Shown: in pieces, positions 15,722 through 39,688 of the stretch
How positions within the stretch are numbered: position 1 is the first letter of the stretch
Layout of the letters: every line of letters starts with the position of its first letter
Assembly: GCF_003334785.1 (NCBI RefSeq)
Contig: NZ_QOWV01000014.1
DNA: 64,000 nt
Source: Escherichia coli
GTDB lineage: Bacteria > Pseudomonadota > Gammaproteobacteria > Enterobacterales > Enterobacteriaceae
Reading direction: 5' to 3' (one strand)
The notes under the pieces: model-generated
What the model saw: the letters and a program-made list of their open reading frames with translations, nothing else
What the model was told of the DNA's origin: nothing
The model's database searches: none
Made by a program: the position numbers and the translations under genes

Positions 15722-15756
15722 ACCAAAAAAAACCCGCTGATTAAGCGGGTTTTGAA
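15722..15756. terminator. bidirectional rho-independent terminator between convergent crcB and cspE
   Basis: aaaaaaaacccgctgattaagcgggttttgaa. Confidence 0.8.
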
Positions 15757-15772
15757 TTCTTGCTGACGTATC

Positions 15773-15982
15773 TTACAGAGCGATTACGTTTGCAGCAGAA
15801 GGGCCTTTGGCACCGTTAGTGATTTCGAACTCTACGCGCTGACCTTCAGCAAGAGTTTTAAAACCATTAGTCTGGATTGCAGAGAAGTGTACGAACACGT
15901 CTTTGCTGCCGTCTTCCGGAGTAATGAAACCGAATCCTTTGGACTCATTAAACCACTTAACGTTACCTTTAATCTTAGACAT
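15773..15982 (-). CDS. cspE: cold-shock-domain protein CspE
   Basis: ORF 15773..16012; start at internal Met ([20 protein letters not shown]...) giving 69 aa. Confidence 0.95.
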
Positions 15983-16156
15983 CAAAATTACCTTTACATG
16001 AAAAATAGACACAAATGCTGTGTCGGTTACCAGTACACCAATTGTGGTACGCTTTGTCCAGTGTAACTTTACTAAAAAGTGATAAAAGTCGCGTTATTTT
16101 TGATGTTACTTATTTTAGCTATTGATTTTAAAGAAGTTACTAAAACTTCATTTGTC

Positions 16157-16717
16157 TCAAAACTGAAAGCGCATCCAGGCAAAGTACACATTGCCATTGT
16201 TGTAGGTACCCGGAATGTAGGTCATCTGAAAAGTCACTGGGCCATAACCCACGGAGGCCAATGGCAGTAGAACCGGGAGAGGGATGTAATTCCAGTTATC
16301 GCGTGCCGTTACGCCAGCGGTGAATCCCAGACCTAAATGAAAATTTTCATCCGCCAGCGGTCGCCAGGTACTTTCCCATCCGTATCCGGCAATCGGTTCC
16401 CATTTGTTCCACGAGTCCTTAAATGCCATGGCATACAGGCCATGCCAGTTTCCTTTTTCATCCCAACGCGACAGGCCAAAACCGCCACCCCACGGTCGCT
16501 CGTTATAGCGATCGGTTTTTTCTTTGTCGTAAGCGAAACGTGCATGCCAGGTGATGGCAGGAATATATAAATCATAATGTTCAGGCTGTTGCCAGGTTTG
16601 TGCAATATTTTCTCTAAACGTTGTCATCCACTCATCTGCGTTAGCAAAAACTTTACCAACGCTGATTAACTGAATAAAAACAAAGGAAAAGATAGCGACA
16701 TATTTACTCACGTTCAT
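16157..16717 (-). CDS. pagP: lipid A palmitoyltransferase PagP (CrcA)
   Basis: ORF 16157..16741; start at [12 protein letters not shown]... giving 186 aa outer-membrane enzyme. Confidence 0.92.
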
Positions 16718-29077: not shown

Positions 29078-29223
29078 TCATCTGATTTACAAAACACGCT
29101 AATTCGTCTTCCATAAACCAAGGCGATTAAGATTTATACATAATGCGCTGCATTGAGGAATTCCCTGAATGTGACGCAAATCACTTCAAAGAGTGAGCAA
29201 CAGTCAGTATCATCATGTGAGTT

Positions 29224-29258
29224 AAACCCTCGCCGCCTGACGGTGAGGGTTTTCTTTT
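29224..29258 (+). terminator. hairpin with T-rich tail between rna and rnk
   Basis: aaaccctcgccgcctgacggtgagggttttctttt. Confidence 0.45.
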
Positions 29259-29306
29259 GGGTATGTTTATCTGCGACACTCGCAGCACCGACGACATGGA
29301 GTAAAA

Positions 29307-34460: not shown

Positions 34461-34700
34461 CGCCAGCGGCGATAAAAAGTAAAATGGCCCCCTTTCCAGG
34501 TGACCGTGTAATCTGAACTACCCTTTGGTATCTTCAGTGCCTGCCTGCAGGCTGAGGTGTTGCCCTTACAAATGCAACAACGACATGGATTACAACACCC
34601 TCATAAACAAAGGGCAATCACCTGATCTAAGCTCTTACCTATGACAGTGATAGGTTATGCCTTTTACTCGACTTTTGCACTGACTGAAAAGGACAAATTA

Positions 34701-35655: not shown

Positions 35656-36558
35656 ATGGCCAATCTCTACGACTTGAAAAAGTTCGACTTAAATCTTCTT
35701 GTCATATTTGAGTGTATTTACCAGCATTTAAGCATTAGCAAAGCTGCTGAATCACTATATATCACCCCATCAGCCGTGAGCCAGTCGTTACAACGCTTAC
35801 GTGCGCAATTTAATGACCCTTTATTCATTCGCTCAGGAAAAGGTATCGCGCCGACGACAACAGGGTTAAATCTGCATCACCATCTTGAGAAAAATCTCAG
35901 AGGCCTTGAACAAACAATTAATATAGTCAATAAGTCCGAACTAAAGAAAAACTTTATTATCTACGGCCCTCAGCTCATTTCTTGCTCTAATAATAGTATG
36001 CTGATCCGCTGCCTACGGCAAGATTCCTCTGTCGAGATTGAGTGCCATGATATCCTCATGTCAGCAGAGAATGCTGAAGAACTGTTGGTTCACCGCAAAG
36101 CCGATCTGGTGATCACCCAAATGCCAGTGATCAGCCGTTCCGTCATTTGCATGCCATTGCATACGATTCGCAATACTCTAATTTGTAGTAATAGGCATCC
36201 ACGAATTACTGACAATAGCACTTATGAACAAATTATGGCAGAAGAGTTCACCCAATTAATATCTAAATCAGCAGGGGTTGATGATATTCAAATGGAAATA
36301 GACGAGAGATTTATGAATCGCAAAATCTCATTTCGTGGTTCCTCTTTGCTGACAATCATTAATAGCATTGCAGTTACAGATTTACTGGGAATAGTCCCCT
36401 ATGAACTTTATAATTTCTACCGTGACTTTCTTAACTTAAAAGAGATAAAACTAGAACATCCGTTACCTTCAATAAAGCTTTACATTTCCTATAATAAATC
36501 TTCTTTAAATAATTTGGTGTTCTCCCGATTTATTGACCGTCTAAATGAGAGTTTTTGA
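35656..36558 (+). CDS. ybdO: LysR-family transcriptional regulator YbdO
   Basis: 300-aa ORF with N-terminal HTH (TPSAVSQSLQRLR); alignable by eye with ybeF along its length; markedly AT-rich. Confidence 0.88.
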   Translation: MANLYDLKKFDLNLLVIFECIYQHLSISKAAESLYITPSAVSQSLQRLRAQFNDPLFIRSGKGIAPTTTGLNLHHHLEKNLRGLEQTINIVNKSELKKNFIIYGPQLISCSNNSMLIRCLRQDSSVEIECHDILMSAENAEELLVHRKADLVITQMPVISRSVICMPLHTIRNTLICSNRHPRITDNSTYEQIMAEEFTQLISKSAGVDDIQMEIDERFMNRKISFRGSSLLTIINSIAVTDLLGIVPYELYNFYRDFLNLKEIKLEHPLPSIKLYISYNKSSLNNLVFSRFIDRLNESF

Positions 36559-36704
36559 TATATAACTACAGACAGCTACTATAACTTTCATCTATTTATT
36601 CACAGCGCGAATGAAAAATAAAACACTCTGCTTTACAGTGTTTACTTTATAATTAACAGACTTATCTCACTGATCACCCTGTAACGTTCAGAGAGCGTCT
36701 TCAG

Positions 36705-37925
36705 ATGTCTATTTATAAAATTCCTCTTCCGCTCAATATTCTGGAAGCTGCACGAGAGCGTATTACCTGGACACTCAACACCCTACCCCGCGTTTGTGTC
36801 TCATTTTCTGGCGGCAAAGACTCTGGTTTAATGCTGCATCTGACAGCCGAACTTGCCCGACAAATGGGCAAAAAAATCTGCGTTTTGTTTATCGACTGGG
36901 AGGCGCAATTCTCTTGCACCATTAACTATGTTCAGTCCCTGCGCGAGTTGTACACCGATGTCATCGAAGAGTTTTACTGGGTTGCGCTCCCGCTTACGAC
37001 GCAAAATTCCCTTTCACAATACCAACCCGAATGGCAGTGCTGGGAACCTGATGTCGAATGGGTACGTCAACCTCCCCAAGATGCGATAACCGACCCTGAC
37101 TTTTTCTCCTTTTACCAGCCAGGCATGACCTTCGAACAATTTGTACGTGAGTTTGCCGAATGGTTTTCACAAAAACGTCCGGCGGCGATGATGATCGGCA
37201 TCCGTGCGGATGAGTCCTACAACCGTTTTGTCGCCATCGCCAGTTTAAATAAACAACGTTTTGCCGACGATAAACCCTGGACTACGGCCGCACCAGGCGG
37301 TCATAGCTGGTACATTTACCCCATTTACGACTGGAAAGTGGCTGATATCTGGACCTGGTATGCAAATCATCAAAGTCTCTGCAACCCACTGTATAACCTA
37401 ATGTATCAGGCAGGCGTTCCTCTGCGTCATATGCGAATTTGCGAACCTTTTGGCCCGGAGCAACGACAAGGATTATGGCTCTATCACGTTATCGAACCGG
37501 ATCGCTGGGCTGCTATGTGCGCACGAGTCAGCGGGGTAAAAAGTGGCGGCATTTACGCCGGACATGACAATCATTTCTATGGGCATCGGAAAATCCTCAA
37601 GCCAGAACATTTAGACTGGCAAGAATATGCATTATTGCTGCTCAATAGCATGCCGGAAAAAACAGCTGAGCATTACCGCAATAAAATCGCCATTTATTTG
37701 CACTGGTATCAGAAAAAAGGCATCGAGGTTCCACAAACCCAGCAAGGGGACATTGGCGCGAAAGATATCCCCTCCTGGCGGCGGATATGCAAAGTTTTAC
37801 TCAATAACGATTACTGGTGTCGGGCATTATCATTTAGCCCCACAAAATCGAAGAACTATCAGCGTTATAACGAACGGATAAAAGGAAAACGTCAGGAATG
37901 GGGGATACTATGCAACAACGATTAA
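36705..37925 (+). CDS. ybdN: PP-loop ATP pyrophosphatase (PAPS-reductase-like) YbdN
   Basis: 406-aa ORF with PP-loop motif SGGKDSG near N-terminus. Confidence 0.88.
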   Translation: MSIYKIPLPLNILEAARERITWTLNTLPRVCVSFSGGKDSGLMLHLTAELARQMGKKICVLFIDWEAQFSCTINYVQSLRELYTDVIEEFYWVALPLTTQNSLSQYQPEWQCWEPDVEWVRQPPQDAITDPDFFSFYQPGMTFEQFVREFAEWFSQKRPAAMMIGIRADESYNRFVAIASLNKQRFADDKPWTTAAPGGHSWYIYPIYDWKVADIWTWYANHQSLCNPLYNLMYQAGVPLRHMRICEPFGPEQRQGLWLYHVIEPDRWAAMCARVSGVKSGGIYAGHDNHFYGHRKILKPEHLDWQEYALLLLNSMPEKTAEHYRNKIAIYLHWYQKKGIEVPQTQQGDIGAKDIPSWRRICKVLLNNDYWCRALSFSPTKSKNYQRYNERIKGKRQEWGILCNND

Positions 37926-38527
37926 CGCAGGATTTAACGCAATTTCTCGCCAGCTTGCCGGAAGATGATCGCATCAAAGCGATTAATGAAATCCGCATGG
38001 CGATCCATCAGGTTAGCCCCTTTCGTGAAGAGCCAGTGGATTGCGTTCTGTGGGTTAAAAACAGCCAACTTATGCCTAATGATTACAACCCAAACAACGT
38101 GGCACCACCCGAAAAAAAACTGCTGCAAAAATCCATTGAAATAGATGGTTTTACCCAACCCATTGTGGTCACACATACGGATAAAAATGCCATGGAAATC
38201 GTGGATGGTTTTCACCGCCATGAAATTGGTAAAGGCTCATCATCATTAAAATTACGCTTAAAAGGTTATTTGCCGGTGACCTGTCTGGAAGGTACGCGTA
38301 ATCAACGCATCGCCGCGACTATTCGTCATAATCGCGCTCGTGGACGCCATCAAATCACCGCCATGTCGGAAATCGTCCGTGAACTTAGCCAGTTGGGATG
38401 GGACGATAATAAAATTGGCAAAGAGCTGGGAATGGACAGCGACGAAGTGCTGCGCCTGAAGCAAATTAACGGCCTGCAAGAGTTGTTTGCCGACCGTCAA
38501 TATTCCCGCGCCTGGACGGTTAAATAG
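37898..38527 (+). CDS. ybdM: ParB/sulfiredoxin-like domain protein YbdM
   Basis: 209-aa ORF overlapping ybdN 3' end by 28 nt. Confidence 0.85.
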   Translation: MGDTMQQRLTQDLTQFLASLPEDDRIKAINEIRMAIHQVSPFREEPVDCVLWVKNSQLMPNDYNPNNVAPPEKKLLQKSIEIDGFTQPIVVTHTDKNAMEIVDGFHRHEIGKGSSSLKLRLKGYLPVTCLEGTRNQRIAATIRHNRARGRHQITAMSEIVRELSQLGWDDNKIGKELGMDSDEVLRLKQINGLQELFADRQYSRAWTVK

Positions 38528-39688
38528 CTAAAGCTGGCGCAGGCGTTCAGCTGCTGCCAGCAACGTCGATTCCTTCTTGGCAAAACAGAGACGAATCAGT
38601 TTATGTGGGAAGGGATCGGCGCAAAACACCGACAGCGGAATCGCCGCTACGCCGTGCTCCTGCGTCAGCCACTGGCAAAACTCAACATCATCCAGGGTAG
38701 AAACCGCGCTGTAATCCACCAGCAAAAAGTATGTACCTTCACACGGTAAAATCTCCAGCCGGCTTTCATTTAAAGCATTCACCAGAATATCGCGCTTCTG
38801 GCGATAAAAGTCCGGTAACGCAAGATAATGCTCAGGTTCTGCACGTAGCATATCAGCAAGCGCCAGCTGTGCCGGGGTATTCACCGAAAAGGTCAGATAC
38901 TGATGTACCTTGCGAATTTCGGCGCTGATGGGCGCTGGCGCAACACAATAACCCACTTTCCAGCCGGTCATATGATAGGTCTTGCCAAATGAAGAAACCG
39001 CCACTGCCCGCTCACGCAGCTGCGGATGCGCCAGCACACTGGCATGGCCCTGTTGTGAAAAGTTGATGTGCTCGTAGACTTCATCGCTAATGACAAAAAT
39101 CTCGTGCCCGGCGATCGCCTGCCACAAAGCGGCGAAATCAGCCTGCTGCCAGACAGTTGCACTGGGGTTATGCGGAGTGTTGAGGATCACCAGTCTGGTG
39201 CGCTCGCTTAATAATGCGGCAAATTCCTGCCAGTCAACGCGAAAATGCGGTGGTTGCAGTGCCATACGCTTCACTATTCCCCCAGAAAGCGCGATGGCGG
39301 GGGCGTAACTGTCATAGCTGGGATCAAAACAAATCACTTCATCGCCATTGCGCACCAGTGCGGTAATCGCCGCGTATAACGCTTCCGTCGCCCCTGCCGT
39401 TACGGTGATATCGCTATCGGCATCTGGTTGATAGCCATACAAACGTTCCGTTTTCTGAGCAATCGCCTCGCGCAAGGCCTGCACGCCGGTCATGGGCGCG
39501 TATTGGTTTGCCCCCTGTGCAACGTGGTGCGCCAGCCGCTCCTGTAAATAGCGCGGACCATCAAAATCAGGAAAGCCTTGCGACAGGTTAATCGCCTGGT
39601 GTTGCTGCGCCAGCGCGCTCATCTGGGTGAAAATAGTGGTGCCAAGTTGTGGAAGTTTGCTTTGTGGAATCAGAGGGTTATTTGTCAT
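38528..39688 (-). CDS. ybdL: PLP-dependent methionine aminotransferase YbdL
   Basis: 386-aa class-I aminotransferase ORF (SFGKTYHMTGWKVGY lysine region). Confidence 0.9.
   Translation of the reverse strand: MTNNPLIPQSKLPQLGTTIFTQMSALAQQHQAINLSQGFPDFDGPRYLQERLAHHVAQGANQYAPMTGVQALREAIAQKTERLYGYQPDADSDITVTAGATEALYAAITALVRNGDEVICFDPSYDSYAPAIALSGGIVKRMALQPPHFRVDWQEFAALLSERTRLVILNTPHNPSATVWQQADFAALWQAIAGHEIFVISDEVYEHINFSQQGHASVLAHPQLRERAVAVSSFGKTYHMTGWKVGYCVAPAPISAEIRKVHQYLTFSVNTPAQLALADMLRAEPEHYLALPDFYRQKRDILVNALNESRLEILPCEGTYFLLVDYSAVSTLDDVEFCQWLTQEHGVAAIPLSVFCADPFPHKLIRLCFAKKESTLLAAAERLRQL

Follow-up and report, generated by a model that had tools for sequence, protein, structure and literature searches.

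What do ybdN and ybdM do in Escherichia coli? Both are counted among the E. coli K-12 genes without an assigned function, yet the pair that they form is one of the more widespread uncharacterized two-gene modules. We studied this pair in a stretch of 64,000 nucleotides (nt) of E. coli DNA, hereafter the window, to which all coordinates refer, and where ybdN and ybdM follow the LysR-type regulator gene ybdO (citR). A preliminary description of this DNA had seen here a PP-loop ATPase and a ParB-like protein under a LysR regulator, had likened the pair both to IbrA/IbrB and to DndC/DndB of phosphorothioation systems, and had considered a nucleic-acid modification or defense-related role conceivable. 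Our own reading, which is tentative and to which we would give somewhat less than an even chance, is that ybdNM is a normally silent chromosomal copy of IbrA/IbrB, and that its two products act together as an ATP-dependent modifier or regulator directed at DNA, which CitR and H-NS keep off. The same description had remarked that the genes were already annotated. Indeed, since the genes, the IbrA/IbrB family name, the regulator and the silencing by H-NS are present in the literature or in RefSeq, this part of the finding was already known. What is added here is the obligate pairing across domains of life and phages, the SNF2 and GNAT-like partners, the argument for adenylyl rather than sulfur chemistry, and the view that the label given to the phage members is likely misleading.

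The three genes

The genes were recovered as open reading frames (ORFs), all on the + strand:

35656-36558, + strand: ybdO (citR), ORF of 300 amino acids (aa), LysR-type transcriptional repressor with HTH_1 and LysR_substrate domains
36705-37925, + strand: ybdN, ORF of 406 aa, IbrA-type PP-loop ATP pyrophosphatase with a helical DUF3440 domain
37898-38527, + strand: ybdM, ORF of 209 aa, IbrB-type ParB/Srx-fold protein with a C-terminal helix-turn-helix (HTH)
37898-37925, + strand: overlap of 28 nt shared by the end of ybdN and the start of ybdM, predicted from the sequence to couple translation

Both the succession of three genes over 35656-38527 and the 28-nt overlap had been described before and were found again. 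A Shine-Dalgarno-like AAGGA stands 11 nt 5' of the ybdM ATG (37898), and gene overlaps, of 4-16 nt, also occur in homologous pairs. Compared with the B2-type allele of strain FY26 (L001), the ratio of nonsynonymous to synonymous substitution rates (dN/dS) was 0.03-0.06, namely 0.033 for ybdO, 0.039 for ybdN and 0.060 for ybdM. These low values indicate that the three genes are functional and under purifying selection.

YbdN, a PP-loop protein without a conserved cysteine

The assignment of YbdN to the superfamily of 3'-phosphoadenosine 5'-phosphosulfate (PAPS) reductases, based on its PP-loop SGGKDSG, was borne out by the profile search. The motif occupies residues 35-41 and corresponds to the SGGxDS loop that closes the first strand of the Rossmann-like alpha/beta fold in the PAPS-reductase-like clade of PP-loop proteins, and Pfam recognized PAPS_reduct over residues 30-234 (E = 1e-13) and DUF3440 over residues 237-384 (E = 5e-23).

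36807-36827, + strand: YbdN PP-loop S35-G-G-K-D-S-G41, with S35, G37, K38, D39 and S40 conserved at 98-100% (n = 86)
37413-37856, + strand: YbdN DUF3440 domain (Pfam), residues 237-384, all-helical (helices only in the model), followed by a basic C-terminal tail

Conservation was assessed on 86 full-length representatives of the family. Besides the PP-loop residues, D64, E66, D209, D214, W216, N227 and Y230 are conserved at 97-100%, as are G165, R167, E170, S171 and R174 of a GIRxDESxxR motif and several tryptophans, including W113 and W119. There is no conserved cysteine column among these representatives; the best one reaches 81%, and E. coli YbdN has an alanine at that position. YbdN is thus not expected to insert sulfur or to reduce PAPS, and the absence of a conserved cysteine excludes both the catalytic cysteine of PAPS/APS (adenosine 5'-phosphosulfate) reductases and the Fe-S or persulfide cysteines of DndC, SspD, TtuA and NcsA. 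The nearest solved relatives, by sequence profile as well as by fold, are the adenylyl-transferases CysD and FAD synthase; in the absence of a conserved cysteine, the closest functional analogs would therefore be enzymes that move AMP from ATP to an acceptor. Sequence and fold together thus point to a canonical PP-loop ATP pyrophosphatase, for which we infer the substrate below, and they argue that its chemistry is narrowed to adenylyl transfer and not sulfur transfer.

YbdN shares with CysD and with the PAPS-like domain of eukaryotic FAD synthase a functional PP-loop and a predicted adenylyl transfer that needs no catalytic cysteine. It also recalls CysD as an enzyme coupled to a separate nucleoside triphosphatase subunit (the GTPase CysN in CysDN). 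However, the partner of YbdN is a ParB-like HTH protein and not a CysN-like GTPase, DUF3440 is an extra domain, and the CysD models scored YbdN at 18-25 bits for cut-offs of 195-413. For DUF3440 itself, no solved relative was found by sequence profile, and the fold match was confined to the N-terminal domain of YbdN.

A genuine PAPS/APS reductase (CysH) was also considered and rejected, as YbdN has no ECGLH-type C-terminal cysteine and scored 34.8 bits against the 254 required by TIGR02057 and 34 against the 154 required by PRK02090. The label 'PAPS reductase, auxiliary sulfur metabolism gene' commonly carried by phage members of the family is likely misleading. Long fusions within the YbdN family were examined as possible clues, but most of them were gene-call read-throughs (IbrA with a GNAT-like protein, or a UvrA fragment with IbrA) and were uninformative.

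YbdM, a ParB/Srx fold followed by a helix-turn-helix

The ParB/sulfiredoxin-like fold proposed for YbdM was supported by an alignment with ParB/Noc and by matches to KorB and sulfiredoxin (Srx). The figures listed for these matches were 11.0 for KorB, 10.3 for sulfiredoxin, 10.0 for PadC, 9.8 for pNOB8 ParB, 9.1 for both SbnI and the KorB DNA-binding domain, 8.8 for the serine kinase SerK and 8.4 for Spo0J. From the matches to KorB, Srx, ParB, SbnI and SerK it follows that YbdM, a member of the ParB/Srx superfamily, consists of a nucleotide-binding domain of this type and then an HTH, and the HTH region itself matches KorB, ParB and further HTH proteins in their DNA-binding domains. No C-terminal dimerization domain was seen in the model, where the chain stops after the HTH at residue 209.

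38204-38218, + strand: YbdM D103-G-F-H-R107, nucleotide-binding loop of the ParB/Srx fold, aligned with the ParB/Noc GERR box (n = 42 homologs)
38324-38350, + strand: YbdM R143-H-N-R-A-R-G-R-H151, family signature, with R143, N145, R146, A147, G149 and H151 invariant
38354-38485, + strand: YbdM helix-turn-helix, residues ~153-196, LGMDxDEvLRLKQ, modelled helices 153-165, 170-177 and 181-196

Across the 42 homologs, D103, G104 and R107 of the loop are invariant and H106 is conserved in at least 90%; N61, N64-P-N66 and E72 are also invariant. Taken together, the invariant residues appear to be a signature of the family's own on a ParB/Srx scaffold. YbdM does not have the canonical CTP clamp of ParB, KorB and Noc, as DGFHR stands in place of the GERRxRA box. 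We take DGFHR to be nearer to the ATP-using type of Srx, SerK, SbnI and DndB, the comparison made here being that with GERR. The DndB/DGQHR models gave no match to YbdM; NCBIfam returned just a weak Noc match (E ≤ 0.01) and PADLOC just a weak match to a ParB-domain methyltransferase (E ≤ 0.1).

Like YbdM, the CTP-gated transcription regulators KorB and VirB, DpdB, and the ParB-type activators that serve phage thymine dioxygenases combine a ParB N-terminal nucleotide-binding fold with an HTH. YbdM differs from them by DGFHR in place of GERR, by the lack of a C-terminal dimerization domain and by its length of 170-210 aa, and its motifs YNPN-VAPPE and RHNRARGxH are absent from all these families. 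In two of these cases a DNA-modifying enzyme cannot do without its ParB-like partner, which gives a precedent: on double-stranded DNA, a phage thymine dioxygenase depends on such an activator (PMC13229309), and DpdA has the ParB-like ATPase DpdB as its partner.

An obligate pair in bacteria, an archaeon and phages

When 100,044 species genomes were scanned with a pattern, 80 loci were obtained, and in these hidden Markov models (HMMs) of the families were run on six-frame ORFs. These loci came from Proteobacteria, Bacteroidota, Firmicutes, Verrucomicrobiota, Lentisphaerae, Armatimonadota and one Heimdallarchaeon. YbdN was found in all 80, and a same-strand YbdM homolog in 78, the other two ending at a contig edge; among these 78 testable loci, the YbdM homolog was downstream of YbdN in 76 and upstream in 2. 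In a phage collection, 224 records matched YbdN and 230 matched YbdM, with near-identical genus counts. The pair is therefore obligate, in 78 of 78 testable loci and in about 225 phages. Also, over their full length the two proteins matched PHROG 2302 (E = 5e-77) and PHROG 2159 (E = 4e-69), and the family comprised 1693 clusters at 50% identity (E ≤ 1e-3) among 1.8 billion representatives.

Two short records named as phages need a word of caution. 'Escherichia phage ECO95 1-6-1' (OR845499.1, L091, marked 'UNVERIFIED') was rejected as a source of a true IbrB, since it is an enterobacterial ybdN-ybdM-ybdL fragment with ~75% DNA identity to E. coli. 'Salmonella phage S.Kent 1-2-1' (OR851112.1), with 82% protein identity to YbdN, like the Salmonella ortholog, is probably a chromosomal fragment too. 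Neither should count as phage evidence. A toxin-antitoxin role, suggested by a TASmania 'guilt by association' entry (lmo1309/lmo1310), was dismissed because no feature supported it and the two proteins resemble enzymes or DNA-binding proteins.

Neighboring genes were surveyed in the same 80 loci. Two partners recur: an SNF2-family ATPase of 400-560 aa (Pfam SNF2-rel_dom and Helicase_C) in 20 loci, and a small GNAT-like protein in 30, which is a clear GNAT in the proteobacterial members and degenerate in Bacteroidota. The SNF2 proteins match ZorD, DpdE and DrmD at the level of the helicase domain only. In three loci (L035, L080, L088) the order is SNF2-GNAT-IbrA-IbrB; L010 is listed among the cassettes of four genes (SNF2 ATPase, GNAT-like, IbrA, IbrB), and the GNAT-like gene separates IbrA from IbrB in L034 and L038. 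Beyond these two partners the neighbors vary, with no conserved nuclease, methylase or other effector. The survey of neighbors for defense or modification genes thus brought out SNF2 and GNAT-like partners, but no conserved defense gene or methylase.

Among phages, the neighbors of the pair are a methyltransferase, additional ParB-like genes and the terminase in Arthrobacter phage Laroye, Bacillus phage 055SW001 and mycobacteriophage Morty007, and an SNF2-like helicase in Lactobacillus phage AQ113 and Streptococcus phage PY7. In Fusobacterium phage phiFN37 the pair is near a ParB-like gene and a DpdA-like tRNA-guanine transglycosylase (TGT). Laroye gp4 (L005, 1712-3190; 493 aa, phrog_16093, no NCBIfam match) lies inside a cluster of ParB-like, IbrA, IbrB and methyltransferase genes before the terminase, and could be a further component in actinophages.

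A core paralog of IbrA/IbrB

The pair had been said to correspond to IbrA/IbrB of other E. coli strains. At the level of the family this is correct: ybdN codes for a PAPS_reduct and DUF3440 protein and is followed on the same strand by an overlapping gene for an IbrB-type ParB-like protein, the two-gene architecture of IbrA/IbrB. RefSeq names agree, YbdM being 'IbrB-like' and a 74%-identical ortholog being an 'IbrA family prophage gene co-activator'. The equation does not extend to ybdNM itself, which is the core paralog of the module, ~58% identical to the accessory IbrAB-type pairs. In contrast to these island and plasmid pairs, which have no LysR gene, ybdNM is core chromosomal and has its own LysR repressor.

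The locus was found in 5423 of 5426 complete E. coli genomes, of which 5321 (98%) hold at least 80% of the query, and the 3.3-kb query matched sequenced E. coli strains at 100% identity. Orthologs with 70-85% identity occur throughout Enterobacteriaceae. The rare losses are deletions mediated by insertion sequences (IS). In strain ET120 (L002), ISKpn26 replaced the stretch from ybdO to near entF, and in strain LAU-OXA (NZ_CP045277.1, 3388651-3392727) an IS1 is annotated inside the ybdO-ybdN-ybdM match, which is split in two. These disruptions show that the locus is dispensable in some strains.

A second, IbrAB-type pair with ~58% protein identity was present in 2025 of the 5426 genomes (37%), mostly on the chromosome and in up to 4 copies, and such paralogs are carried by ~700 plasmids (Klebsiella pLVPK-like, ColV). 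The accessory pairs are surrounded by IS elements, lie beside a PerC-family regulator on an O157:H7 island, or occupy a site beside a TonB-dependent receptor. Several of them are close to iron-uptake genes, repeatedly beside iutA-iucABCD, iroBCDN, fecIA or a TonB-dependent receptor (L006, 8992-10856; L007, 8989-10850; L092, 8936-10791; L093, 8999-10851). In the related strain ET120 the core ybdNM is ~10-15 kb from the enterobactin cluster, and YbdM is similar to SbnI, which has the ParB/Srx fold and belongs to staphyloferrin B biosynthesis. The proximity to iron loci may reflect a real link or a chance effect of virulence islands.

As the preliminary description had stated, the literature defines no biochemical activity for IbrA/IbrB, and our own literature searches found no biochemical characterization or activity of either ybdNM or IbrAB. 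In work attributed to Sandt et al. 2002, IbrAB are said to raise the expression of prophage eib genes; this is a phenotype of IbrAB, which applies to ybdNM by analogy only.

Regulation by CitR and H-NS

YbdO passed the NCBIfam CitR equivalog NF047710 (467.1 bits for a cut-off of 400, residues 1-294), its HTH_1 and LysR_substrate domains were recognized by Pfam (E = 1.7e-18 and 3.5e-9), and it had zero matches in PADLOC-DB 2.0. That the pair is under this LysR regulator, as had been proposed, agrees with published experiments. A chromatin immunoprecipitation-exonuclease (ChIP-exo) peak of YbdO was found 5' of citR-ybdNM and the protein was renamed CitR (Rodionova et al., 2022; PMC9068703), and deletion of ybdO raised ybdN by 5.5 log2 and ybdM by 2.5 log2 in RNA-seq (PMC9068703). 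Also, H-NS binds and represses ybdO, the promoter of which has been mapped (Higashi et al., 2016; PMC4720273).

35448-35655, + strand: dsbG-ybdO intergenic region (GC 0.36-0.37) with the ybdO (citR) promoter, bound by H-NS, and the CitR ChIP-exo peak (autoregulation); predicted placement, not at base level (PMC4720273, PMC9068703)
36559-36704, + strand: ybdO-ybdN spacer, 146 nt, AT-rich, presumed ybdNM promoter region

The deletion of citR changed the expression of 86 genes, including flagellar and cys-regulon genes, for only 2 ChIP-exo sites (PMC9068703); the whole cysteine regulon (cysDNC, cysJI, cysAUW) rose ~4-7-fold, the flagellar regulon rose and lrhA fell (PMC9068703, Table 1). With 86 changed genes and 2 CitR sites, much of this response may be indirect, possibly through derepressed YbdNM. 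Conceivably, YbdN, with its fold like that of CysD and PAPS reductase, might then disturb the pools of sulfur nucleotides.

The promoter and the coding region of ybdO are diversified among E. coli lineages (PMC4720273). We found two deeply split allele classes, with 80% nt identity and a synonymous divergence (dS) of ~2.0 (35656-36558 against 2747-3649 of L001), the divergent class being present in ~1760 of 5423 genomes, about a third. Around ybdO, dS is ordinary (0.27 for ybdN, 0.10 for ybdM, 0.14-0.18 for the flanks dsbG and ybdL). This pattern matches the published H-NS-linked diversification (PMC4720273).

A LysR gene 5' of the pair is found only at the enterobacterial core locus (7 of the 80 loci in the clustering), where it holds position -1 in 8 of 9 maps; the copies on islands, plasmids and phages are without it. 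The best explanation is that an IbrA/IbrB-type module gained citR as a LysR repressor specific to this lineage. Within the ybdO-ybdN spacer, a TATAAT hexamer can be read, and a promoter-like TTGATA-16-TACTAT lies at 36555-36582; such sites are no commoner than in shuffled sequences. Promoter and terminator scans of the locus did no better than shuffles, and phylogenetic footprinting defined no site in the spacer, the divergence of which is too great outside Escherichia.

Comparison with DndC/DndB

At the level of superfamilies, the likeness to DndC/DndB (and to SspD/SspE and BrxP) that had been pointed out is real. A PP-loop ATP pyrophosphatase goes together with a ParB/Srx-superfamily protein bearing a DGxHR-type loop, and DNA is the actual or proposed target in both cases. 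Below that level it was lost. DndC has a three-cysteine 4Fe-4S cluster and a cysteine dyad (PMC10853773), whereas YbdN has neither, and DUF3440 replaces the C-terminal region of DndC. The DndC model TIGR03183 scored YbdN at 22.2 bits for a cut-off of 290.4, over residues 145-223 only, and the PADLOC matches of YbdN to DndC (2e-5) and BrxP (1e-4) were both partial. None of DndA/D/E, SspB/C, PglZ/BrxL/BrxC or a nuclease partner was conserved in the 80 loci. Membership in Dnd, Ssp or BREX was thus rejected, given HMM scores below the cut-offs, no conserved cysteine and no partner genes. PADLOC-DB 2.0 returned no specific defense-system match, YbdN and YbdM having only weak superfamily matches. 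Thus, no result here indicates the defense role that had been suggested. The module lies outside Dnd, Ssp, BREX-4, CysH, canonical ParB and any PADLOC family. As for nucleic-acid modification, the idea of phosphorothioation fell, and that of a DNA-directed role stands as plausible: the SNF2 ATPase, the methyltransferases and the HTH strengthen the case for a nucleic-acid-directed function.

Proposed mechanism and alternatives

In the mechanism that we propose, YbdM, a ParB/Srx nucleotide binder with a KorB-like HTH, would bind DNA and position or activate YbdN in a putative complex, the nucleotide pocket acting as a gate. YbdN would spend ATP on adenylating a target on or near the DNA, which may be a base or a phosphate of the backbone, or else a factor bound to the DNA. 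The presumed covalent mark or remodelling would change the expression of silenced, horizontally acquired genes, as reported for IbrAB, and in phages it may mark or protect the phage DNA. In other lineages the SNF2 ATPase, the GNAT-like protein or both would join the pair. In E. coli, the operon is kept off by CitR and by H-NS acting on the AT-rich citR region, as published. A bolder form of this proposal seems to us unlikely: a sulfur-independent, adenylation-driven DNA modification or DNA-templated marking, in which the ParB/Srx-HTH protein would deliver a CysD/FAD-synthase-like enzyme with an optional SNF2 translocase and GNAT-like protein, and which, silent and universal in E. coli, would switch on silenced foreign genes or shield DNA when on the hundreds of phages, the virulence plasmids and the genomic islands that carry it.

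Several points weigh against a DNA-targeted modifier or regulator. YbdN could act on RNA, on a protein or on a small molecule instead, and DUF3440 gives no recognizable DNA-binding fold match. The GNAT-like proteins of Bacteroidota have weak Pfam scores and no clear acetyl-CoA motif, and may be non-catalytic. The position of the pair beside siderophore loci on plasmids and islands is not explained by DNA modification. The broad response seen in the transcriptome of the citR deletion (flagella, lrhA) may be an artefact of the strain or stem directly from CitR, and no biochemical or genetic test of ybdNM was found in the literature. Finally, DNA modification in E. coli K-12 is, to our knowledge, known only as Dam, Dcm and EcoKI methylation; as the ybdNM operon is silent in the laboratory, this last argument is weak.

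The main rival to a DNA modifier is an anti-silencer or co-activator acting without covalent modification. YbdM would then be a VirB/KorB-like nucleotide-gated clamp, able to spread and to dislodge H-NS or to make contact with RNA polymerase, and YbdN an accessory ATPase or nucleotide-handling subunit. We consider this unlikely, as the fully conserved PP-loop and adenylate-binding motifs of YbdN argue for real enzymology, the DGFHR of YbdM is not a CTP-binding GERR and no dimerization domain follows it, and virulent phages, too, carry the pair, as do chromosomal contexts other than prophages. A pair modifying tRNA or rRNA, in the manner of TilS, TtcA or TtuA and possibly with a TmcA-like acyl transfer by the GNAT protein, would equally make use of a PP-loop enzyme. 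It is improbable in view of a ParB/KorB-like HTH partner and of DNA-related neighbors (SNF2, methyltransferase, terminase), and no THUMP, PUA or TilS C-terminal domain was detected in the Pfam scan of YbdN.

Decidedly improbable, in our opinion, is an enzyme of sulfur assimilation or small-molecule metabolism (PAPS/APS handling or adenylyl transfer, perhaps linked to iron or citrate), with YbdM as a SerK/SbnI-like kinase. Such a role sits poorly with the missing ECGLH-type cysteine and the CysH scores of about 35 bits against 154-254, with the conserved HTH of YbdM, with neighbors such as SNF2, methyltransferase and terminase genes, and with the abundance of the pair in small phage genomes; moreover, outside Enterobacteriaceae the neighborhood is neither metabolic nor conserved. 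As for a Dnd/Ssp/BREX-4-like phosphorothioation or anti-phage defense system, the shared PP-loop (DndC, SspD, BrxP) and ParB-like (DndB, SspE) superfamilies and the weak partial HMM matches to DndC and BrxP are in its favor. It is nevertheless highly improbable, since the DndC score is far under its cut-off, the cysteines for an Fe-S cluster or persulfide, a DndB/DGQHR match and conserved partner genes nearby are all missing, and the pair is abundant in phages and core in E. coli (5321/5426) rather than patchy.

Composition and other features of the window

The module had been called AT-rich as a whole. Values per gene were as follows:

ybdO: GC 38.5%, GC at third codon positions (GC3) 40%
ybdN: GC 47.6%, GC3 50%
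ybdM: GC 46.8%, GC3 48%
Flanking genes: GC 46.9-55%, GC3 50-58%

From these values, only ybdO is clearly AT-rich, and the description holds for this gene but not for ybdN and ybdM, dsbG being as low as these two (46.9%). Along the window, GC is 0.33-0.43 across ybdO and both spacers, 0.46-0.50 across ybdN and ybdM, and 0.52-0.57 further out.

The locus is flanked by ahpCF-dsbG upstream and by ybdL-ybdH-ybdD-cstA, which are convergent, downstream. The stop codons of ybdM (+) and ybdL (-) abut at 38525-38530, with zero intergenic bases and no terminator between them, and ybdL-ybdM is given as a convergent 'excludon' in an RNA-seq listing (PMC12288877). Derepression of ybdNM should therefore yield antisense transcription into ybdL, a methionine-oxo-acid transaminase gene. 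Repeat and Rfam scans of the locus gave nothing relevant. Rfam matches were seen in other parts of the window: a marginal one to the small RNA (sRNA) STnc70 in the ahpC-dsbG intergenic region (34474-34567, - strand, 42.7 bits for a gathering score of 40), the rnk leader (29153-29261, + strand, 125 bits), a cspA-type thermoregulator 5' untranslated region (15725-16167, - strand, 124 bits) and the sRNA ES036/CssrF (63095-63136, + strand, 40.5 bits).

Significance

The module is part of the core genome of E. coli and of many Enterobacteriaceae, a second copy travels on islands and on hypervirulence and ColV plasmids, and an Asgard archaeal element carries it as well. Also, ~225 sequenced phages have the pair, with hosts among Actinobacteria, Firmicutes, Bacteroidota and Proteobacteria. 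If ybdNM and its relatives do carry out DNA modification or counter-silencing by a novel ATP-dependent chemistry, they would add a new member to the systems of DNA modification and epigenetic regulation. This would explain the old IbrAB phenotype, and it would correct the pervasive misannotation of the phage genes as 'PAPS reductase / auxiliary sulfur metabolism gene'.

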